IMG/VR virus record: IMGVR_UViG_3300039368_000086
Span: 1-13,305 of that record
Source of the DNA: a virus
Lineage: Duplodnaviria; Heunggongvirae; Uroviricota; Caudoviricetes
Strand: one strand, 5' to 3'
Length of the DNA stretch: 13,305 bases
The translations under genes and the position numbers were made by a program. A model generated the notes under the pieces. It was given only the letters and a program-made list of their open reading frames with translations. It was not told the origin of the DNA and searched no databases. Each line of letters opens with the position of its first letter. The stretch's first letter is position 1. Of the stretch, positions 3,072-12,455 are shown piece after piece.

Positions 3072-3722
3072 ATGAATGAAAATCAGTTAGCTCCTTGTTG
3101 GGAATTTCAACCTTATCTTGCTGAAAACTATGTTCGCCACTTGTTGGCGGAGATCGCTAACGTACTTGAGCAGCTGTACTATCATAAGCACGCATTAGAC
3201 AGCAACTGGTCTGAAGGTGTAAGGGCTTATGATTGGGTCAGAAATCATCTTATTCAAAATGAAGATGCAATTCCTGGCCTTGAGATGATTTCCAAGGGGT
3301 TGGACTATGTAGTTGCTTTAAATAAAGTTCCGCTACAATTTACCAAAGATTGCATTAATAACCCCAAAAAGAAACATCGTCTGCGTCGAAATAAAGTAGA
3401 GTATGAGCAGCTCTCATTGTTTGGTGATGTTGAGGCTGAGCAAGATATTACATGGCGAGTCATAGCTGAGCCTTTTTTATCCGAAGAGGGCGATGGTGAA
3501 TTAGAGTCCACACTGCCTCGTTGGGAGGTAGCTCTTGTTGGATTTAATACTTATGGTGCTCAGATTAGTATAGTTTCTCATCAATCTACAGCATCGATGC
3601 CGCTTATGCCTCTTGATTATAACACACTCCCTGACGAAGCGGAGATTAATAAGGTGCCTCTTCGTCGGCGTACGAAGGATAAAGATTTGGATGTGAGCAG
3701 TGATGGAACATCAGGTGAATAA
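3072..3722 (+). CDS. Hypothetical protein (216 aa), upstream partner of the HTH-peptidase; no family recognised
   Basis: Long ORF in an AT-rich segment, translationally coupled (about 20-nt overlap) to the downstream gene; weak ribosome-binding site. Confidence 0.65.
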   Translation: MNENQLAPCWEFQPYLAENYVRHLLAEIANVLEQLYYHKHALDSNWSEGVRAYDWVRNHLIQNEDAIPGLEMISKGLDYVVALNKVPLQFTKDCINNPKKKHRLRRNKVEYEQLSLFGDVEAEQDITWRVIAEPFLSEEGDGELESTLPRWEVALVGFNTYGAQISIVSHQSTASMPLMPLDYNTLPDEAEINKVPLRRRTKDKDLDVSSDGTSGE

Positions 3723-4806
3723 CTTCACTGAGTATCGGGGTGATAAGCTCAAACTAGCGAGAATGGCTGTTGGGCTTTCTTGTGAAGAGTTAGCCGAAAA
3801 AATTGGCAAGACAAAGCAATTCGTTAGCAAACTGGAGAAGGGGTGCAGGCCATCGGAGCAATGTCTTGAGTTAATATCTTCAGCGCTTATGATTAAGTCC
3901 AGTTTTCTTTTTACTGAACGAAAATACGCTCTGGAAAGTGATGTCTGCCATTTTCGGAGTAAGAAGTCCAGGACTCAAACGCTGACTAATAGTGTATTGG
4001 CCAGGGCTGAGATTCTTAATATTATAATTTCTGCTGTTGAAGGTGAAATCGAATTTCCTGACGTTAACATACCGGAGCACCCAGGGGCTGAATTACTTAC
4101 TCCGAATGATATTGAGCGAGTGGCAGAAGATTGTCGCCGTGCCTGGAATTTAGGTCTTGGCCCTATATCATCAATGGTTAAATTGGCGGAGAGTTTAGGG
4201 GTAATCGTTGCGCATGTTACGGGAGTCGATGATCGTGTTGATGCTTTTACTGTTCACAATAACAGGCCTGTTATCATCAGGAACAATGTTAAAAAAAGCA
4301 TATGTAGATTTCGCTCTGATTTAGGTCATGAATTAGGGCATTTAGTAATGCATGAGGGCATAACGACAGGTGATAAACTTACGGAATCACAAGCCGATCA
4401 CTTTTCGAGCGCCTTATTAGTTCCCAGGTTATCTTTCATTAAAGAATTTCCACGAATACGAGGTAAGCAATTCGACTGGAATGCTCTGGTTGAATTTAAA
4501 CTTAGATGGAAAATCAGCCTTAAAATGTGTATTTATCGAGCCAGCGCATTAGGCTTATTGACCCAGGAACAGGCAAGAACTGGCTATATGCATCTTAATT
4601 CCAGAGGGTATACGAGAGTTGAACCTGGTGATGAACTTTTGCGCCCTGAAGAACCCGGCATGCTGGCCGAGGCGATTGAAATGCTGGATGATGCAACCTG
4701 GCTAAGAATTCTTATGAAAACTGGCTTGAGCCAAGATTTAATTCGTGAGTTGTTCTCCATCAACAGACCTATTACAAATCCAAGAAATATTTTCCAGATT
4801 GTTTGA
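3703..4806 (+). CDS. HTH_XRE DNA-binding domain fused to ImmA/IrrE-family (M78, COG2856) zinc metallopeptidase
   Basis: N-terminal helix-turn-helix signature (LKLARMAVGLSCEELAEKIGKTKQFVSKLEKG); HEXXH zinc-binding motif in DLGHELGHLVMHEG; 367 aa. Confidence 0.85.
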   Translation: MEHQVNNFTEYRGDKLKLARMAVGLSCEELAEKIGKTKQFVSKLEKGCRPSEQCLELISSALMIKSSFLFTERKYALESDVCHFRSKKSRTQTLTNSVLARAEILNIIISAVEGEIEFPDVNIPEHPGAELLTPNDIERVAEDCRRAWNLGLGPISSMVKLAESLGVIVAHVTGVDDRVDAFTVHNNRPVIIRNNVKKSICRFRSDLGHELGHLVMHEGITTGDKLTESQADHFSSALLVPRLSFIKEFPRIRGKQFDWNALVEFKLRWKISLKMCIYRASALGLLTQEQARTGYMHLNSRGYTRVEPGDELLRPEEPGMLAEAIEMLDDATWLRILMKTGLSQDLIRELFSINRPITNPRNIFQIV

Positions 4807-5470: not shown

Positions 5471-6517
5471 GTGCGGGTATTACTTCGACCTGTTCTGGTA
5501 CCGGAACTCGGGCTGGTGATCGTTAAGCCGGGCCGTGAATCCATGCCGGTATTCCACAATACCCGGGTACTGGTGGAGCCGGAACCGAAAAGCATGCGTA
5601 ATCTGCCGTCCGGGGTCGTTCCTGCCGTTCGCCAGCCGCTGGCGGAGGATAAATCATTACTGCCATTTTTCAGCGACGAACGAGTGATTCGTGCTGCTGG
5701 TGGCGCTGGCGCATTGTCTGATTGGTTACTGCGCCATGTTAAATCCTGCCAGTGGCCACACGGCGATTATCACCACAGTGAAACCGTCATTCACCGTTAT
5801 GGTACCGGCGCAATGGTGTTGTGCTGGCACTGCGACAACCAGCTGCGCGACCAGACCTCCGAATCACTCGGGCAACTTGCTCACCAAAACCTGTCTGCAT
5901 GGATGATTGACGTCATACGCCATGCAATGAATGGCTCGCAGGAACGGGAATTATCGCTGGCTGAATTATCCTGGTGGGCGGTCCGCAATCAGGTGGCGGA
6001 CGCGCTACCGGAAGCGGTATTACGTCGTTCGCTGGGGTTGCGTGCGGAAAAAATCCGCTCAATGTACCGTGAAAGCGACATCGTACCGGGAGAGCAGACC
6101 GCCACCAGCATACTGAAGCAGCGCACAAAAAATCTTGCGCCGCTGCCTCACGCCCACCAGCAAAACCCGCCACAGGAAGAGACGGTGGTCAGCATTGCCG
6201 TTGATCCTGAGTCTCCGGAATCTTTCATGAAACGACCTAAACGTCGCCGCTGGGTTAACGAGAAATACACACGCTGGGTGAAGACACAGCCGTGTGCGTG
6301 TTGTGGTAAGCCAGCCGACGATCCCCATCACCTGATTGGTCATGGTCAGGGCGGAATGGGGACAAAATCTCACGATATTTTCACGCTACCGCTGTGTCGG
6401 GAGCATCACAACGAGCTTCATGCGGATCCTCTGGCGTTCGAAGAAAAGCATGGTTCTCAGGTTGATTTAATTTTTCGTTTTCTTGATCACGCCTTTGCAA
6501 CTGGCGTGCTTGGGTAA
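5471..6517 (+). CDS. DUF968-family (YdfU-like) phage protein with C-terminal HNH/zinc-finger-like motif
   Basis: GTG start with GGAGG ribosome-binding site; C-terminal CACCGK...DPHHLIGHGQGG...CREHHNELH motif; 348 aa, close to the size of Qin prophage YdfU; located just upstream of rusA/Q. Confidence 0.75.
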   Translation: MRVLLRPVLVPELGLVIVKPGRESMPVFHNTRVLVEPEPKSMRNLPSGVVPAVRQPLAEDKSLLPFFSDERVIRAAGGAGALSDWLLRHVKSCQWPHGDYHHSETVIHRYGTGAMVLCWHCDNQLRDQTSESLGQLAHQNLSAWMIDVIRHAMNGSQERELSLAELSWWAVRNQVADALPEAVLRRSLGLRAEKIRSMYRESDIVPGEQTATSILKQRTKNLAPLPHAHQQNPPQEETVVSIAVDPESPESFMKRPKRRRWVNEKYTRWVKTQPCACCGKPADDPHHLIGHGQGGMGTKSHDIFTLPLCREHHNELHADPLAFEEKHGSQVDLIFRFLDHAFATGVLG

Positions 6518-6529
6518 AAGAGGTGACTG

Positions 6530-6889
6530 ATGCTCATAGATTTGGTTTTACCTTACCCGCCGACGGTGAACACTTACTGGCGACGCCGTGGCAGCACATA
6601 TTTTATCTCGGAGGAGGGAAAGCGTTATCGCCGGGCTGTGGCGCTTATTGTTCGCCAGCAGCGGCTGAAATTAAGCCTGTCCGGAAGGCTGGCGATAAAG
6701 GTGATTGCAGAGCCACCGGATAAGCGCCGCCGCGACCTGGACAATATCCTGAAGGCACCACTGGATGCGCTGACGCATGCCGGACTACTTATAGACGACG
6801 AGCAGTTTGATGAAATCAATATTGTGCGCGGTCAGCTCGTTCCTGGTGGGCGGCTGGGGATAAAAATCACAGAACTGGAGTGCGCATGA
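6530..6889 (+). CDS. rusA: Crossover junction endodeoxyribonuclease RusA (Holliday junction resolvase)
   Basis: 119 aa; conserved PDKRRRDLDN and GGRLGIKITE motifs matching the RusA family; canonical position before Q. Confidence 0.9.
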   Translation: MLIDLVLPYPPTVNTYWRRRGSTYFISEEGKRYRRAVALIVRQQRLKLSLSGRLAIKVIAEPPDKRRRDLDNILKAPLDALTHAGLLIDDEQFDEINIVRGQLVPGGRLGIKITELECA

Positions 6890-7575
6890 ATAACCAGTAT
6901 TTACAGTTTGTGCGTGAGCAGCTCATTATCGCCACCGCTGATTTGAGTGGGGCAACAAAAGGTCAGCTTGAAGCCTGGCAGGAGAATGCCATGTTCGATA
7001 CAGGGCGTTACAGGCGTAAAAAAATCCGGTACCGCGATGAAGTGACCGGAAAAATGATAACGCGGGATAATCCACCAATCCCGGGAAAACAATCGCTGGC
7101 GAAGGGGACGTCAATTCCTCTGGTCAGTCAGGTTGCTTTTTCTACATCATCATGGCGGCGGGCTGTTTTGTCTCTTGAAGAACATCATAAAGCCTGGTTG
7201 TTGTGGTGTTACAGCGGAAATACTTGCTGGGAGTATCAGATCGCGATAACGCAGTGGGCATGGACAGAATTTAAGACTCACTCTGGTACCAGGAAAATTG
7301 CAGGGAAGACACAGGAACGCCTGAAAAAATTAATCTGGCTGGCTGCACAGGATGTCAGGAGATGGGTTATAGGACATGATATCTACCAGCAACAGGAGCT
7401 TGCCCGTCTGTGTGGGATTAAGCCTGACAACTGGAGCCACAATTATGTGAGCTACTGGCGTGAAATACTCGACATTTTTATGAACCTCGATACCGAATCT
7501 CTGATTTGCACTGTGAAAAGGAGATCTCAACAAAAAGCGGCATTTTTGCAGCGAGATATTGCAAAAGTCAATTAG
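6886..7575 (+). CDS. Late-gene antitermination protein Q (phage 21/82/Qin-type Q family)
   Basis: ATGA overlap with the rusA stop; 229 aa; immediately followed by a PR'-like promoter and a short-transcript terminator. Family assignment is mainly positional. Confidence 0.7.
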   Translation: MNNQYLQFVREQLIIATADLSGATKGQLEAWQENAMFDTGRYRRKKIRYRDEVTGKMITRDNPPIPGKQSLAKGTSIPLVSQVAFSTSSWRRAVLSLEEHHKAWLLWCYSGNTCWEYQIAITQWAWTEFKTHSGTRKIAGKTQERLKKLIWLAAQDVRRWVIGHDIYQQQELARLCGIKPDNWSHNYVSYWREILDIFMNLDTESLICTVKRRSQQKAAFLQRDIAKVN

Positions 7576-7623: not shown

Positions 7624-7648
7624 ACCCGCTCAAATGTGCGGGTTTTTT
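7624..7648 (+). terminator. tR'-like rho-independent terminator (CCCGC ... GCGGG + T6)
   Basis: 5-bp GC stem, 8-nt loop, TTTTTT tract; position right after Q. Confidence 0.6.
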
Positions 7649-7721
7649 GCTTAACTCTGTGGACCTTTTTATCTGTAGTTGTAATATATGGATATTGTTA
7701 CAATTTAGGTCGGTGAGCTTA

Positions 7722-8486
7722 ATGGAAGAACAGCACGGTAATTACTTTATAAAACGAATTCAGTTGATTGGAAGAGGGGCATTTGGCTTTGTTGAACACG
7801 TTAAGGTTTACAACCTCAATAAAGGTGAATGCGGGGATTATGCTAGAAAGGTTTTAGCACCCGAAAAACCAGAGCTTTTGGCGCAAATAGAGCAGTTTAG
7901 AAGGCGTTTTAAAAGGGAGGTTGTGTATCAATCACATTGCGTACATAGCAATATTGTTCCTATTTATTTGTGCGATTTGTTTGTTGAGAATCCATGGTTC
8001 ATTATGGATAAAGCAGAATGTGATCTTGAGCACGAAATAACGAACAACCTTCTTACAACAGATCAAAAAATTTCAATAGTGAAAATGGTATTAGATGGTG
8101 TAGCTTACATCCATGCCAAAGGCTATTTACACAGAGATATAAAACCCTTTAATGTTTTGCGATTTAGCGACGGAACATACAAGGTGTCTGATTTTGGTCT
8201 GGTAAAAGATACGAATCCCGAAGGGGATACCACTAAATTGACCGAGATCGGTACCCGTATGGGAAGTACAAGATATATGGCTCCCGAGATTTTATATAAT
8301 GCAGAGTATTCAGTTAAGACTGATGTTTATGCTGTGGGACGGTTAATTGAAGACTTAAATTTAGATGATAAAAAAATAAAGCCTATCATAGCTAAGTGCA
8401 CAAGGATGGATAAAGATGATAGATATCAGACAATAGATGATGTGGCGTTTGATTTTGCGCATTCTTTTTTAAGGAGTGAGTCATGA
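7722..8486 (+). CDS. Hanks-type (eukaryotic-like) Ser/Thr protein kinase, minimal kinase domain only (254 aa)
   Basis: Full motif set: glycine loop IGRGAFGFV, ARK lysine, catalytic loop HRDIKPFN, DFG (VSDFGLVK), APE (YMAPE), DVYAVG; GGTGAG ribosome-binding site before ATG 7722. Confidence 0.85.
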   Translation: MEEQHGNYFIKRIQLIGRGAFGFVEHVKVYNLNKGECGDYARKVLAPEKPELLAQIEQFRRRFKREVVYQSHCVHSNIVPIYLCDLFVENPWFIMDKAECDLEHEITNNLLTTDQKISIVKMVLDGVAYIHAKGYLHRDIKPFNVLRFSDGTYKVSDFGLVKDTNPEGDTTKLTEIGTRMGSTRYMAPEILYNAEYSVKTDVYAVGRLIEDLNLDDKKIKPIIAKCTRMDKDDRYQTIDDVAFDFAHSFLRSES

Positions 8487-9226
8487 TTCAGCTGATAGCG
8501 ACTTCATCATTCTCGTATCCAAAAGAACCAGGTAGGGTCAACGAAGATTCATTGCTTCCTCCAAAAATTGTAGGAGACGGCATCTTATTTGCCGTAGCTG
8601 ATGGTGTAGGTTCATACTCTGGTGCCAGTTATGCTTCATCCATGGCAATCGCTGAACTTTCAGCATTGACAAGTTTATCTTTTGATGCAGTTCCGAATGT
8701 ATTTGCTGAAGTTAAGCGAAAAGTTATGTCGTTAGCTGAAGTTAATGATGAGTTCGATAAAGCTGCTACTACACTTACCTTTTGTTATGTTTGTGATAGC
8801 GGAATTATTATTGGTCATATTGGTGATTGTCGCTTGTATTGCATTGGAGAAAAGAAAGCATATCAATTGACGAAGGACGATACCAGACATCAGATGTTAA
8901 TTGATCAGAATATTTTTAAACCCAGAGATTTGAAGAATAAACCGGGAAAAAATATCTTAACGACTGCCATAGCCTCAAATGTTGATATGGAATACGACTG
9001 TGATTTTATCCCGTGGAAAGATTTGCCTGGTATTAACGGGTTGTATCATCTGTGTATCATGTCTGATGGAGTTCATAACGTTTGGGAAAAACGCCCCAGA
9101 TTTACATCAAATACTATGAGTAATAGTCAGAAGTTTTCTAATGGTATTTTGCGTCGTATAGAGAGAGCCGGACCTGATGATGACTTTTCTTTAGTAAGTA
9201 TAATGGTGCGTGTGACGTCAGATTAG
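8483..9226 (+). CDS. PP2C-family (PPM) Ser/Thr protein phosphatase (247 aa)
   Basis: Motifs RVNEDS, FAVADGVGS, IGDCRLY, MSDGVHN, GPDDDFSLV; AAGGAG ribosome-binding site; ATGA overlap with the kinase stop (translational coupling). Confidence 0.8.
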   Translation: MIQLIATSSFSYPKEPGRVNEDSLLPPKIVGDGILFAVADGVGSYSGASYASSMAIAELSALTSLSFDAVPNVFAEVKRKVMSLAEVNDEFDKAATTLTFCYVCDSGIIIGHIGDCRLYCIGEKKAYQLTKDDTRHQMLIDQNIFKPRDLKNKPGKNILTTAIASNVDMEYDCDFIPWKDLPGINGLYHLCIMSDGVHNVWEKRPRFTSNTMSNSQKFSNGILRRIERAGPDDDFSLVSIMVRVTSD

Positions 9227-9295
9227 TTGTATAAACCCAGTAGGGAATGCTAATTTCCCATACTACAGAGTAAAGAAAAACTTAATTTTAATGTG

Positions 9296-9322
9296 AAAAG
9301 GCTGCTATCAGGCGGCCTTTTT
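9296..9322 (+). terminator. Rho-independent terminator after the kinase/phosphatase cassette
   Basis: AAAAGGCTGC-TATCAG-GCGGCCTTTTT: 6-bp stem with one G-U pair, flanked by A4 and T5. Confidence 0.5.
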
Positions 9323-9336
9323 ATGTCTGAAAAGCT

Positions 9337-9663
9337 GTGCAGTACGTTAAACACGCTTGTGGTTGTGAATGCCGACTGCGGCGGTATTTTGGCGTGACAG
9401 CGCAGGTGCCGTATACCGATGTCTGGACGCATAAACCGGTGCAGTTCTATCCCGGGAAACATCCGTGCGAAAAACCGGCAGAAATGCTGCAGCAGATAAT
9501 CAGCGCAAGCAGTCGTCCGGGAGACCTGGTTGCAGATTTTTTTATGGGCTCAGGTTCAACGGTAAAAGCGGCACTGGCGCTCGGGCGTCGTGCGATTGGC
9601 GTTGAACTGGAGACCGGACGTTTTGAGCAGACAGTCAGGGAAGTTCAGGATTTAATCGTTTGA
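9337..9663 (+). pseudogene. C-terminal fragment of an N6-adenine/N4-cytosine DNA methyltransferase (5'-truncated)
   Basis: Contains HPCEKP (H-P-x-x-K-P) and the FFMGSGST AdoMet-binding motif, but no DPPY catalytic motif and only a GTG start abutting a terminator. Confidence 0.55.
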
Positions 9664-9712
9664 AACGGATGAGATTGCAGAATTAATTACGCACCATTAT
9701 TATTCTGCTTCC

Positions 9713-9788
9713 GGCCCTTTAGCTCAGTGGTGAGAGCGAGCGACTCATAATCGCCAGGTCGCTGGTTCAAATCCAGCAAGGGCCACCA
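9713..9788 (+). tRNA. ileZ: tRNA-Ile2 (anticodon CAU, lysidine type; ileZ-like)
   Basis: Hand-folded cloverleaf: acceptor GGCCCTT/AAGGGCC, D-stem GCTC/GAGC, anticodon loop CTCATAA, T-arm GCTGG-TTCAAAT-CCAGC, 3' ACCA; close to E. coli ileX. Confidence 0.8.
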
Positions 9789-9795
9789 TCACATA

Positions 9796-9872
9796 CCGCC
9801 ATTAGCTCATCAGGAAAGAGCGCCAGCCTTCGAAGCTGGTTGCGCGGAGTTCGGGTCCCCGAAGGCGGTCCA
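9796..9872 (+). tRNA. argN: tRNA-Arg-like (anticodon UCG as read; argN-like) with one mismatch each in acceptor and T stems
   Basis: Anticodon stem CCAGC/GCTGG with loop CTTCGAA; T-loop TTCGGGT; 3' TCCA; imperfect stems make functionality uncertain. Confidence 0.55.
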
Positions 9873-9885
9873 TTATCTGTATCCT

Positions 9886-9962
9886 GCGTTGTTAGCTCAG
9901 CCGGACAGAGCAATTGCCTTCTAAGCAATCGGTCACTGGTTCGAATCCAGTACAACGCGCCA
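9886..9962 (+). tRNA. argO: tRNA-Arg (anticodon UCU, reads AGA; argO/argU-like)
   Basis: Acceptor GCGTTGT/ACAACGC, anticodon loop CTTCTAA, T-arm ACTGG-TTCGAAT-CCAGT, 3' GCCA. Confidence 0.85.
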
Positions 9963-9977
9963 CACTTATTTTCCCTG

Positions 9978-10001
9978 GCTCGCTTTTGCGGGCTTTTTTT
10001 T
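9978..10001 (+). terminator. Rho-independent terminator ending the tRNA cluster (GCTCGC-TTTT-GCGGGC + T8)
   Basis: Read directly from the sequence. Confidence 0.55.
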
Positions 10002-10196
10002 AAATGTCTCACAATTCAGGCGGTTGACTGTTGTCTGGTTTGCGGGGAGTTTGTTAAAAGAAACTGGCATGGTGAATCCCCCTGTGCGGAGGGGCAATCA
10101 GCGAGTAGGTATATGGGATAATCGCGGATTCAGGTGTTGGTACTGAATTCACCGGGAGGCACCCGGCACCATGCAATGGCACATAGCGCCACTCTC

Positions 10197-10226
10197 CAGC
10201 CCCTCTCCGGAGGGGCTGTTTATATT
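10197..10226 (+). terminator. Rho-independent terminator-like hairpin (CAGCCCCTC-TCCG-GAGGGGCTG followed by T-rich tract)
   Basis: 9-bp perfect stem; the T-tract is interrupted (TTTATATTGATTTT). Confidence 0.45.
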
Positions 10227-10249
10227 GATTTTGTCAGATGTGAGTAAAC

Positions 10250-10283
10250 TCCTTATGGACTTTGTTGTTTTAGTCCATAAGGA
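10250..10283. repeat. Perfect 12-bp inverted repeat (TCCTTATGGACT ... AGTCCATAAGGA) with 10-nt loop
   Basis: Every base pair checked by hand; no U-tract on either strand; overlaps the stop codon of the minus-strand ORF. Confidence 0.7.
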
Positions 10284-10588
10284 CATATTTGCAGAGTGCA
10301 ACGGTTATTAAAGCATTCATTCAATACGTTATCTGTATTTGTAGGGCATTCCTGGCTGTTTTTGATTAAATTCCAGAATGTTTTATTGAATGGTACTACG
10401 TTGTAAATGGTTACAGGTAGCACTTTGTTATTGAGCATGATACCTGTGTGAGTCAGTGTAAATATACTTTCAGGAGGTAAGAAAGCATCCGATTGATACC
10501 AGATTATTAATTTTACTTTACTCCATATGACTGAAAAAGATATTCCGCATGATGGCTGGATAACTGTATCAATCACAATCCACTTCAT
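10253..10588 (-). CDS. Hypothetical Cys/Trp-rich protein (111 aa) in an AT-rich segment; only minus-strand gene candidate in the window
   Basis: ORF with AGGAA 7 nt upstream of its ATG on the minus strand; AT-rich (foreign-looking) context; no recognised motif; could be spurious. Confidence 0.3.
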
Positions 10589-10848
10589 TTAGTTTCCTTG
10601 TTTATGCCTTGCTGGTGATGTTCTGAAAAGTATAAATGATATTTTTGAATGTAAACCATAGAGCAGAATTATTTTTATGATGTTGTTTATTGTTTATTTA
10701 AATGCAGGGTGGTTTATATCTCGTCTTGTAGTTTATCCATGCATATCTGCTTGATAATCAAGTTTTTATTTAAGGTATGGTTTTGTGTTTTTTCTGTATT
10801 ACATGTCAGGTATTTTAAAGAATTATTTTTCAGATGGTGGAAAGAACC

Positions 10849-11037
10849 ATGGCATTTAAACACTATGATGTTGTCAGGGCGGCGGCGCCGTCAGATCTTG
10901 CGGAAAAGCTGACACATAAACTGAAAGAGGGCTGGCAGCCGTTTGGTAGTCCGGTGGCCATAACCCCTTATACCCTGATGCAGGCGATTGCAGCAGAAGG
11001 TGATGTGGTGGTCAGTGGTGCAACTGAGCCGGAGTGA
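10849..11037 (+). CDS. Small conserved-looking late-region protein (62 aa; alternative start 10834)
   Basis: ORF with GGTGG/GAAAGA upstream; located just before the lysis cassette, where lambdoid prophages often carry a small conserved gene. Confidence 0.45.
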   Translation: MAFKHYDVVRAAAPSDLAEKLTHKLKEGWQPFGSPVAITPYTLMQAIAAEGDVVVSGATEPE

Positions 11038-11280
11038 TACTACGTCATCGTACTGGCCCGGCATTCCAGGCCATAAAAGACGGTCTGGCAGTGGGACTAA
11101 ATGCACTGACGCTGACGGATATTACCAAAAATGCAACGTATGGCGTTGAGATAGAAAGTCTGGTGCTGGAGATAAATGCACCGGCATCATCATAAAAAGT
11201 GAGCCAGTCAAATGGAAGGTATCGTTAAACTCACCGGTAGTGTCAGTGGGTCGTCTGAGACGCCTGCATGAGTTATCAGA

Positions 11281-11310
11281 GCCATCAGTACTTAACTGGT
11301 GGCTTTTTTA
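11281..11310 (+). terminator. Terminator-like hairpin upstream of the holin (GCCATCAG-TACTTAA-CTGGTGGC + TTTTTTATT)
   Basis: 8-bp stem with one G-U pair followed by a T-tract. Confidence 0.4.
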
Positions 11311-11560: not shown

Positions 11561-11564
11561 AGTG

Positions 11565-12455
11565 ATGAATAAAAAATATGAACTGGTTGTTAAGGGGATA
11601 AATAATTACGGGGATAAGGTTACTGTTACTGTGAAGCCGGAAGGTGACGGGCAAGCGTCGCTGTTGTTGCCAGATGTGGCGATTAGTCTTGACCGTACTG
11701 AAGGTGCCACGCTGGAGTTTTACGAAGCTGAGGCGAAAAAGCAGGCGAAGCAGTTTTTCATGGATGTTGCTGCCGGGTTATGTGAAGGGGATGGTCCGTT
11801 GCCGGAAAAGCGCCCCGTAATTTTAGAGGCGCAGGATGTGTTGATAACCTACAAAGGAAAGCTACCGGGAAGAATTACTTGTTCTCTGAAGATGCCGCCG
11901 TCAACACTGCGGTCAGAAAAAGATGATGTTGAATCACGTATTGAAAAACTGGAGAGCTACGTCGTTGAGCTGAATAAGAAATGGTCGATATTGGTGCCTT
12001 CTGGCGATGAAAAGCAGTTTGCTGCGTTTGACGATTATTGTCGGAAAGTGATGAGCAGAAATCTCGCAGAGTGTTTCAGTATTCATAATGATAATTTCAG
12101 TGACCCGGAATGGGAGTGTAACCGGCCATCCTTTGTTGTATCCGGTGATGCTGGGAAAATAACCATCTCAGAAAATGGGAAAGTAACACCTCCATCGCAC
12201 CAGCACAGTGAGGAGCTCATTGAATTTGCCATTGATTACCTGAAGAACAATAAAAAGCAGGGGCTGATGAAGCGCGTTGGCCGTTGCATGGGATATCTGC
12301 AGGTAGCTGCTGAGATTGAAGCGCTGGCCAGTGGTGCTGATAAGGATGCAATTGTGCGGGAGGCTCTTCTTCGTGATTTTAATACTCCACCCTTTAAAAA
12401 AGTGCCGGCTTACTGGCTTCATCCGGGGCTGACTTATCTTAAAGTGCGTATTTAG
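11565..12455 (+). CDS. Hypothetical protein (296 aa) inserted between holin and endolysin; no family recognised
   Basis: ATG at 11565 lies 7 nt after GGGAGAG, which overlaps the holin stop; long ORF with protein-like composition; no signal peptide or TM segment seen. Confidence 0.7.
   Translation: MNKKYELVVKGINNYGDKVTVTVKPEGDGQASLLLPDVAISLDRTEGATLEFYEAEAKKQAKQFFMDVAAGLCEGDGPLPEKRPVILEAQDVLITYKGKLPGRITCSLKMPPSTLRSEKDDVESRIEKLESYVVELNKKWSILVPSGDEKQFAAFDDYCRKVMSRNLAECFSIHNDNFSDPEWECNRPSFVVSGDAGKITISENGKVTPPSHQHSEELIEFAIDYLKNNKKQGLMKRVGRCMGYLQVAAEIEALASGADKDAIVREALLRDFNTPPFKKVPAYWLHPGLTYLKVRI

Follow-up and report, generated by a model that had tools for sequence, protein, structure and literature searches.

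Anti-adaptors and small RNAs of lambdoid prophages

For the locus considered here, the closest described relative is the iraL gene of uropathogenic E. coli CFT073, whose product interacts with the adaptor RssB and stabilizes RpoS (Hryckowian et al., mBio 2014, PMC4045071). In that study, deletion of iraL halved the log-phase half-life of sigma-S, the mutant was complemented, and the half-life restored, by a native-promoter fragment spanning -100 to +33, and IraL was reported to be active in log phase and to make contacts with RssB unlike those of IraM. The latter protein (YcgW/ElbA), the Mg2+-starvation anti-adaptor of K-12, belongs to the same NCBIfam family (NF007393), and the crystal structure of the IraM-RssB complex (PDB 8TWD) formed the basis for proposing a remodeling of the RssB linker by IraM. 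Identity between IraL and IraM was 58.9% in the published comparison, and was computed here as 62% over 107 aa. The K-12 iraM gene is also prophage-associated, being located beside e14 and adjoining a DUF1398 gene of the kind that is found after the lysis genes of these prophages.

The second group of described elements comprises small RNAs. [quoted passage not shown] Convergent sRNAs have also been described at the PR' moron site, including the anti-sRNAs AsxR and AgvB (Tree et al., Mol Cell 2014, PMC4104026).

The DNA stretch analyzed here, referred to below as the window, comprises 13,305 nucleotides of a Caudoviricetes record from IMG/VR (IMGVR_UViG_3300039368_000086), and the feature of interest is an interval of about 870 bp (9963-10830) between a tRNA cluster and the lysis genes. 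With a probability of about 93%, this interval is a known accessory 'moron' module that consists of two convergent genes, an STnc100-family sRNA gene and iraL, with IraL acting as an RssB anti-adaptor. The feature is real and already known: the protein gene has been published, the sRNA belongs to an Rfam family, and the moron site is well described. Modules of this kind are common in the late operon of lambdoid prophages, where they lie between the ileZ-argN-argO tRNAs and nanS-p.

Organization of the late region

The window represents the early-to-late junction of a lambdoid prophage. RusA (6530-6889) precedes the antiterminator Q (6880-7575; PF06323, 282 bits), which is followed by a fragment of an N6/N4 DNA methylase (9337-9663), three tRNA genes and, beyond the interval, the lysis genes; this order of Q, methylase fragment, tRNAs and lysis genes is as given in the initial annotation. 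Between Q and the methylase fragment, two further genes (7647-9226) were identified, one for a Ser/Thr kinase and one for a PP2C phosphatase, that are missing from the gene order given there. The methylase is truncated to its C-terminal 108 codons, corresponding to positions 134-219 of the N6_N4_Mtase profile, and 1,182 bp are missing in the window compared with strain STEC388.

The three tRNA genes, all on the plus strand and identified by both ARAGORN and the Rfam tRNA model, make up a cluster of the ileZ/argN/argO type: a tRNA with anticodon CAT of the ileZ type (9713-9788), Arg-TCG (9796-9872) and Arg-TCT (9886-9962). The tRNA region shares 92% identity with that of the Stx2a phage AP012536, and the cluster (9713-9962) delimits the stx insertion point on the left. 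It is followed on the same strand by an intrinsic terminator (9977-10002), composed of a 7-bp GC-rich stem at 9977-9994 and a subsequent T8, with a predicted folding energy of -11.4 kcal/mol (z = -3.2). This hairpin, the terminator of the tRNA cluster, is located after argO and is conserved in Stx2 phages; in AP012536 the same hairpin is found 3' of argO, immediately before the stx2 upstream region. A terminator scan of 9200-11300 detected six terminator-like sites versus 1.6 expected, and the two terminator-like hairpins noticed previously in the interval (9977-9994 with T8, and 10197-10218 with a T-rich tail) were both recovered by it.

The right border of the module is a remnant of nanS-p, the prophage sialate O-acetylesterase gene, which lies on the plus strand at 10849-11195 in two pieces: an N-terminal DUF1737 stub that ends at 11037 (Pfam DUF1737, 61 bits) and an ORF at 11034-11195 encoding a 53-aa tail. 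When the 645-aa NanS-p of AP012536 was compared with the window by tblastn, only residues 1-88 and 610-640 were matched, and the RefSeq homologue of the stub is an incomplete DUF1737 protein. In the region 3' of the interval, the DUF1737 ORF is followed by a P21-type holin gene, a DUF1327 ORF and a lysozyme gene. One further ORF on the plus strand (10709-10912, 67 aa), which overlaps both the AT-rich region around the iraL promoter and the first part of the nanS-p stub, was found to have no support and was rejected.

A vacant stx slot

The layout of the window is that of a Stx-phage late region without a toxin gene, as had been proposed from the sequence. Searches for Stx2A and Stx2B in the window by tblastn returned noise only (best E = 0.16), and no stxA or stxB gene lies between the argO tRNA and STnc100/nanS-p, the arrangement by which a Stx-converting prophage is recognized. 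In BLAST alignments with AP012536, window positions 9376-10000 correspond to 5713-6339 and positions 10005-11006 to 7675-8655. The window therefore has the layout of this phage minus a cassette of 1,335 bp that contains the stx2 promoter region, stx2A and stx2B, and the junction is clean. The site at which stx integrates can be assigned to the stretch that separates the argO terminator from STnc100, at approximately 10001-10004; it is empty in the window, contains an insert of about 630 bp with a DUF3927 ORF in CFT073, and is occupied by stx2AB in Stx2 phages.

The stx slot of the window is thus vacant and not filled. The AT-rich segment that the initial annotation had regarded as its filling is located to the right of the slot, and the 870 bp represent the usual right-hand neighbors of the stx slot, since a homologous module is found downstream of stx2AB in Stx2a and Stx2c phages. 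In AP012536, for instance, the order is argO, terminator, stx2A, stx2B, STnc100 (7708-7923), an IraM-family ORF and nanS-p, in which the IraM-family ORF (7931-8254, minus strand, 107 aa) is unannotated. STnc100 together with an IraM-family gene or an anti-sRNA constitutes a separate module to the right of the stx site.

It had been suggested that the interval carries a distinct cargo. Cargo is indeed present, in the form of one gene for a small protein and one for an RNA, but neither is uncharacterized, as they correspond to IraL and STnc100. The proposal that a new and uncharacterized small protein or RNA took the place of the toxin genes in the stx slot would be compatible with the Stx-phage-like architecture lacking stx, with the lack of a Pfam model for the ORF and with the unannotated state of the homologous ORF in many phage records; however, given the identities of the two genes and the coexistence of homologues of both with stx2AB in Stx2a and Stx2c phages, it is extremely improbable.

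A different account would view the window as a recent derivative of a Stx2 phage from which the stx cassette was deleted, with iraL and STnc100 left as passengers without a current role. Exactly the stx cassette is missing in comparison with AP012536, the junction is clean, and there are signs of local decay, with the methylase cut by the 1,182-bp deletion and nanS-p reduced to two stubs. Nevertheless, the tRNA region shares 92% identity with the Stx2a phage, but STnc100, iraL and the start of nanS-p share only about 70%, which indicates that the right flank belongs to a different and older lineage and that its ancestry is mosaic, not the outcome of a recent deletion. This lineage is 98.8% identical to the stx-negative prophage of CFT073 and is present in about one quarter of E. 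coli genomes, its iraL gene is intact and under purifying selection, and the DUF3927 cargo in the same slot of CFT073 is more in keeping with mosaic exchange than with loss alone. A recent deletion is consequently considered very improbable.

The STnc100-family sRNA gene

An STnc100-family sRNA gene (Rfam RF02076), the counterpart of EcOnc27/sRNA103, was identified by cmscan on the plus strand at 10038-10227. The match is full length (model positions 1-206), with a score of 132.4 bits versus a gathering score of 47 (E = 1.4e-29), and the minimum free energy of the predicted RNA is -74.6 kcal/mol (z = -2.4). The gene ends in an intrinsic terminator (10197-10226, plus strand), in which a 9-bp stem containing seven GC pairs encloses a loop of 4 nt and is followed by a T-rich tail. 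The helix of this terminator (10197-10218), at which transcription of STnc100 would stop, corresponds to the final helix in the Rfam consensus for STnc100 and is kept in AP012536.

Published STnc100 qPCR primers have exact matches in the window at 10068-10087 and 10141-10160, and the same primers detected STnc100 homologues by qRT-PCR. Homologues are found at the same position in CFT073, STEC388, AP012536 and the Sakai prophage Sp5, and none was found beside iraM of K-12. As the score of the window copy is lower than that of the Sp5 copy (132 versus 208 bits), it is a divergent variant. The window gene most likely encodes a trans-acting sRNA that depends on Hfq and has its own terminator. For the STnc100 family the targets are poorly defined, and they may differ from one variant to another. 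A 42-aa ORF on the minus strand (10054-10182), which at homologous loci is represented in RefSeq as an incomplete hypothetical pseudogene, was treated as spurious because it is located wholly within STnc100 on the opposite strand.

Identity and conservation of iraL

The 111-aa ORF that had been pointed out on the minus strand at 10253-10588 is present and, judged by its sequence, is iraL, encoding an RssB anti-adaptor of the IraM/IraL/RssC family. Its product is identical to CFT073 IraL (WP_000871291.1) at 110 of 111 residues, the exception being the conservative substitution V25, which is I25 in CFT073, and the coding regions agree at 334 of 336 nucleotides (99.4%), compared with the full-length identity of at least 95% that was used to define the gene. 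The NF007393 model ('anti-adapter protein IraM') matches residues 1-110 of 111 with 161.4 bits versus a cut-off of 121. Pfam and PADLOC searches with the 111-aa ORF produced no match; as there is no Pfam model for this family, the ORF reads as an orphan when no tools are used, and the homology search that had been recommended for an uncharacterized small protein led to one that is already described. When compared by sequence only, residues 1-78 of IraL align without gaps to the IraM chain of PDB 8TWD (E = 8e-32), whose core is a beta-barrel with a hairpin and a helix. The dN/dS ratio between iraL and its 72%-identical paralogue from a Stx2a phage is 0.15, which indicates that the reading frame is under purifying selection.

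By extension from the literature on the 99%-identical CFT073 gene, IraL of the window would bind and sequester the adaptor RssB, so that RpoS would not be handed over to ClpXP. The expected consequence would be a longer half-life of RpoS in exponential growth and an increased expression of the general stress regulon.

Promoter and transcript ends of iraL

The published 5'-RACE sequence of CFT073 iraL, ACATCACCAGCAAGGCATAAACAAGGAAACCA (PMC4045071), matches the minus strand of the window at 10590-10621 with one mismatch, and none of 200 shuffled sequences produced such a match. The transcription start site of iraL can thus be assigned, by transfer from CFT073, to position 10621, which would give a 5' UTR of 33 nt (10589-10621, minus strand). 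The predicted -10 hexamer TATACT (10634-10629, minus strand) ends 7 nt before this site, and a -35-like hexamer TTTACA (10655-10650, minus strand) is separated from the -10 hexamer by a suboptimal 15-bp spacer and was assigned by hand here. A generic promoter scan made no call at this experimentally mapped promoter, and for this reason both hexamers were placed by hand from the published start site. They are unchanged in CFT073 and STEC388, and for CFT073 the dependence on sigma-70 was deduced from predicted -10 and -35 elements (PMC4045071). The region from -100 to +33, which sufficed for native expression in CFT073, has three differences between the window and CFT073 within its 133 positions (10591, 10622 and 10677; 97.7% identity, compared with the at least 96% used to define the conserved promoter and upstream region of iraL), and the changes at 10622 (promoter position -1) and 10591 (5' UTR) are both found in STEC388 as well.

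The AT-rich stretch that had attracted attention is confirmed, with a GC content of 0.26 over 10622-10833 versus 0.457 for the whole window, and it corresponds to the promoter and upstream region of iraL and the spacer before the nanS-p stub. Although the plus strand contains a string resembling TGTTTA-N5-TATTTA at about 10685-10701, no PhoP box is claimed. The upstream region of K-12 iraM does not align with that of iraL, and the PhoP/Mg2+ control of the K-12 gene is therefore not transferable to iraL; K-12 iraM is further distinguished by having no adjacent STnc100.

At the other end of the gene, the perfect 12-bp inverted repeat that had been noticed previously (10250-10261 and 10272-10283, with a 10-nt loop) covers, as read on the minus strand, the final codons of iraL together with its stop codon, including a four-codon C-terminal extension, QQSP. 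The QQSP tail is present in IraL and absent from IraM and from the Stx-phage paralogue, and the 28-nt segment at the inverted repeat that is the source of this tail is missing from the Stx2a-phage paralogue. [quoted passage not shown] On the minus strand, no U-run follows either hairpin downstream of iraL, which holds for the inverted repeat too.

In the proposed mechanism, iraL would have a sigma-70-type promoter of its own, from which it would be transcribed in the direction opposite to that of the late operon. As this promoter is independent of the phage late promoter, the gene could be expressed in a lysogen, and it may well be expressed in the source host. It is conceivable that iraL is intact but silent, with plus-strand transcription, either antiterminated by Q or reading through from STnc100, overrunning the gene, which would then contribute nothing in this lysogen; the convergent orientation of iraL and STnc100, the antisense position of iraL relative to the PR' late operon and the difference from CFT073 at promoter position -1 would agree with this. 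However, the CFT073 gene has the same convergent arrangement and yet shows log-phase expression and a phenotype, late transcription in a repressed lysogen should stop upstream at tR', and two plus-strand terminators (9977-9994 and 10197-10218) precede the gene. Silencing of iraL is therefore regarded as quite improbable, and an expressible anti-adaptor gene remains the preferred interpretation.

Comparison with related prophages

The potB-island lambdoid prophage of CFT073, which is stx-negative, is 98.8% identical to the window over positions 10005-11260. The two share the 5' UTR, the sequence at the transcription start site and the -10 element of iraL, as well as its neighbors (tRNAs, STnc100, DUF1737 stub and holin), and the order of tRNAs, STnc100, iraL on the minus strand, DUF1737/nanS-p and holin is common to CFT073, STEC388 and SCU-387. 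Features of CFT073 that are not found in the window are the DUF3927 insert of about 630 bp between argO and STnc100 and an IS200 element between Q and the tRNAs; in place of the latter, the window carries the kinase-phosphatase pair and the methylase fragment. Of the two observations that the initial annotation had named as speaking against its reading, an end-to-end alignment with common prophages is indeed obtained, but the other, the lack of a product of the minus-strand ORF, is contradicted by the transcript and the phenotype documented for the CFT073 gene.

The IraM-family ORF of Stx2a and Stx2c phages (for example AP012536, 2851 and 1717, the last being NC_011357) shares 71-73% protein identity with IraL. 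Like iraL, it is convergent with STnc100, precedes nanS-p and has a homologous upstream region; unlike iraL, it is located beside stx2AB and has neither the QQSP tail nor the 12-bp inverted repeat. A literature search revealed no paper evidently devoted to this Stx-phage paralogue of IraM.

In the Sakai prophage Sp5, stx2B is followed by STnc100 (6423-6628, plus strand), AsxR (6630-6682, minus strand, 53 nt) and nanS-p, so that the convergent partner of STnc100 is an anti-sRNA in Sp5 and a protein gene, iraL, in the window. No match to AsxR or AgvB (RF02703 and RF02702), convergent sRNAs of about 55 nt, was obtained in 9960-10900 at E <= 10, and the control, AsxR of Sp5, scored 88 bits. The possibility that AsxR is a degraded relic of an iraM-family gene was considered and rejected, as the Sp5 interval aligns with the iraM-bearing interval only at STnc100 and nanS-p. 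The AsxR and iraM cassettes are thus alternative, non-homologous cassettes. Two adjacent variable positions appear to exist in these prophages, namely the stx slot and the position convergent with STnc100, the latter containing iraL in the window, AsxR in Sp5 and, in many phages of the Stx2a and Stx2c types, a paralogue of IraM.

A speculative extension of these observations, which we consider unlikely although worth stating, is that the position convergent with STnc100 serves as a dedicated exchange site for cassettes that retune global regulators of the host, and that the convergent geometry is itself regulatory. If so, the occupants of the site would be IraM-family anti-adaptors acting on RpoS stability, AsxR acting on FnrS and AgvB acting on GcvB. 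Late transcription antiterminated by Q, or read-through from STnc100, would then be antisense to iraL and would switch it off on induction, by which the host stress response would be tied to the lysis-lysogeny state of the prophage. The mostly unannotated IraM paralogue beside the toxin genes of Stx2a and Stx2c phages could, under the same assumption, alter the levels of RpoS in STEC.

Frequency and annotation

With respect to frequency, a segment covering 80% or more of positions 9663-11040 is present in 1,193 genomes among 5,426 complete E. coli genomes. The iraL gene with its promoter was found at an identity of at least 95% in 1,419 records, which corresponds to about one quarter of the complete E. 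coli genomes, and a further 3,300 records or so have matches at 60-80%; sampled rows of the latter were mostly of the K-12 iraM type, with a few of the Stx-phage type. Among phage records, 46 contain an IraM-family ORF, of which four are 99% identical to IraL and 41 fall at 60-80%. Nearly all of these 41 are Stx2a or Stx2c phages, and a few of them are annotated as iraM, most of those listed being unannotated.

Both elements of the module are therefore common, the protein gene being annotated in RefSeq and the sRNA covered by Rfam. The remaining interest of the locus is comparative, in that a single position beside the toxin slot is taken either by IraM-family genes or by anti-sRNAs. Toxin phages, through the IraM-family ORF beside stx2 that many Stx2a and Stx2c records leave without annotation, may also change the stability of RpoS in STEC. 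As a minor observation on nomenclature, the RefSeq name for IraL is 'anti-adapter protein IraM', a label by which two proteins that were reported to be active under different conditions carry the same name.

Relatives of iraL and occupants of the stx slot in other genomes

An intact IraM-family ORF of 107 aa, related to the RssB anti-adaptor gene iraL, lies on the minus strand of the Stx2a phage AP012536 (L004 7931-8254), 298 bp 3' of stx2B, where the record carries no annotation for it. The same ORF is present in about 40 Stx2a/Stx2c phage records and is unannotated in most of those listed. In CFT073, the position held by stx2AB in Stx2 phages is occupied by an insert of ~630 bp with a 43-aa DUF3927 ORF (L003 42554-43249), located between argO and the STnc100 sRNA gene; the same DUF3927 protein is encoded upstream of iraL in SCU-387 (L006 9989-10120). 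The iraM region of K-12 (L002 6681-8108) is found immediately outside e14 and adjoins ycgX, which encodes a DUF1398 protein. In iraL prophages, a DUF1398 gene is located 3' of the lysis genes, so the surroundings of iraM in K-12 may be what is left of a late region of lambdoid type.

Truncated and accessory genes in the window

Two genes on the plus strand of the window are incomplete. The methylase gene is represented by a 3' fragment (9337-9663), as comparison with STEC388 (L001 4533-5714) revealed a deletion of 1,182 bp from the window that removed the first two-thirds of the methylase together with a small ORF upstream. Of nanS-p, the sialate esterase gene of the prophage, the window retains a remnant (10849-11195) composed of a DUF1737 N-terminal stub and a small ORF for the C-terminal tail; relative to the 645-aa NanS-p of AP012536, the gene has lost ~520 codons, including the esterase domain. 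Between the holin and lysozyme genes, a plus-strand ORF of 297 aa (11562-12455) contains an N-terminal DUF1327 domain, whereas its YdfR-family counterparts in CFT073 and STEC388 are far smaller (~105-115 aa).

Immediately 3' of the late antiterminator gene Q, in the moron region of the late operon, the plus strand encodes a eukaryote-like Ser/Thr kinase with a Pkinase domain and a PP2C phosphatase (7647-9226), the two genes being translationally coupled. The kinase matched the PADLOC models mad6 (137 bits) and PD-T4-6 (117 bits), and the kinase-PP2C pair, which is also present in STEC388, may constitute either a kinase-based defence module or a module for host modulation. In the early region of the prophage, two overlapping plus-strand ORFs of 216 and 368 aa (3072-4806) matched the PADLOC models RmrT (86 bits) and RmrA (349 bits), respectively, the 368-aa ORF containing HTH_3 and Peptidase_M78/ImmA domains; together they resemble an anti-phage defence pair of the Rosmer type. 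The plus strand also carries a type I toxin-antitoxin locus, hok/sok (2581-2906), with an Rfam match to sok (120 bits; 2581-2756) and a Hok/Gef ORF at 2694-2906.
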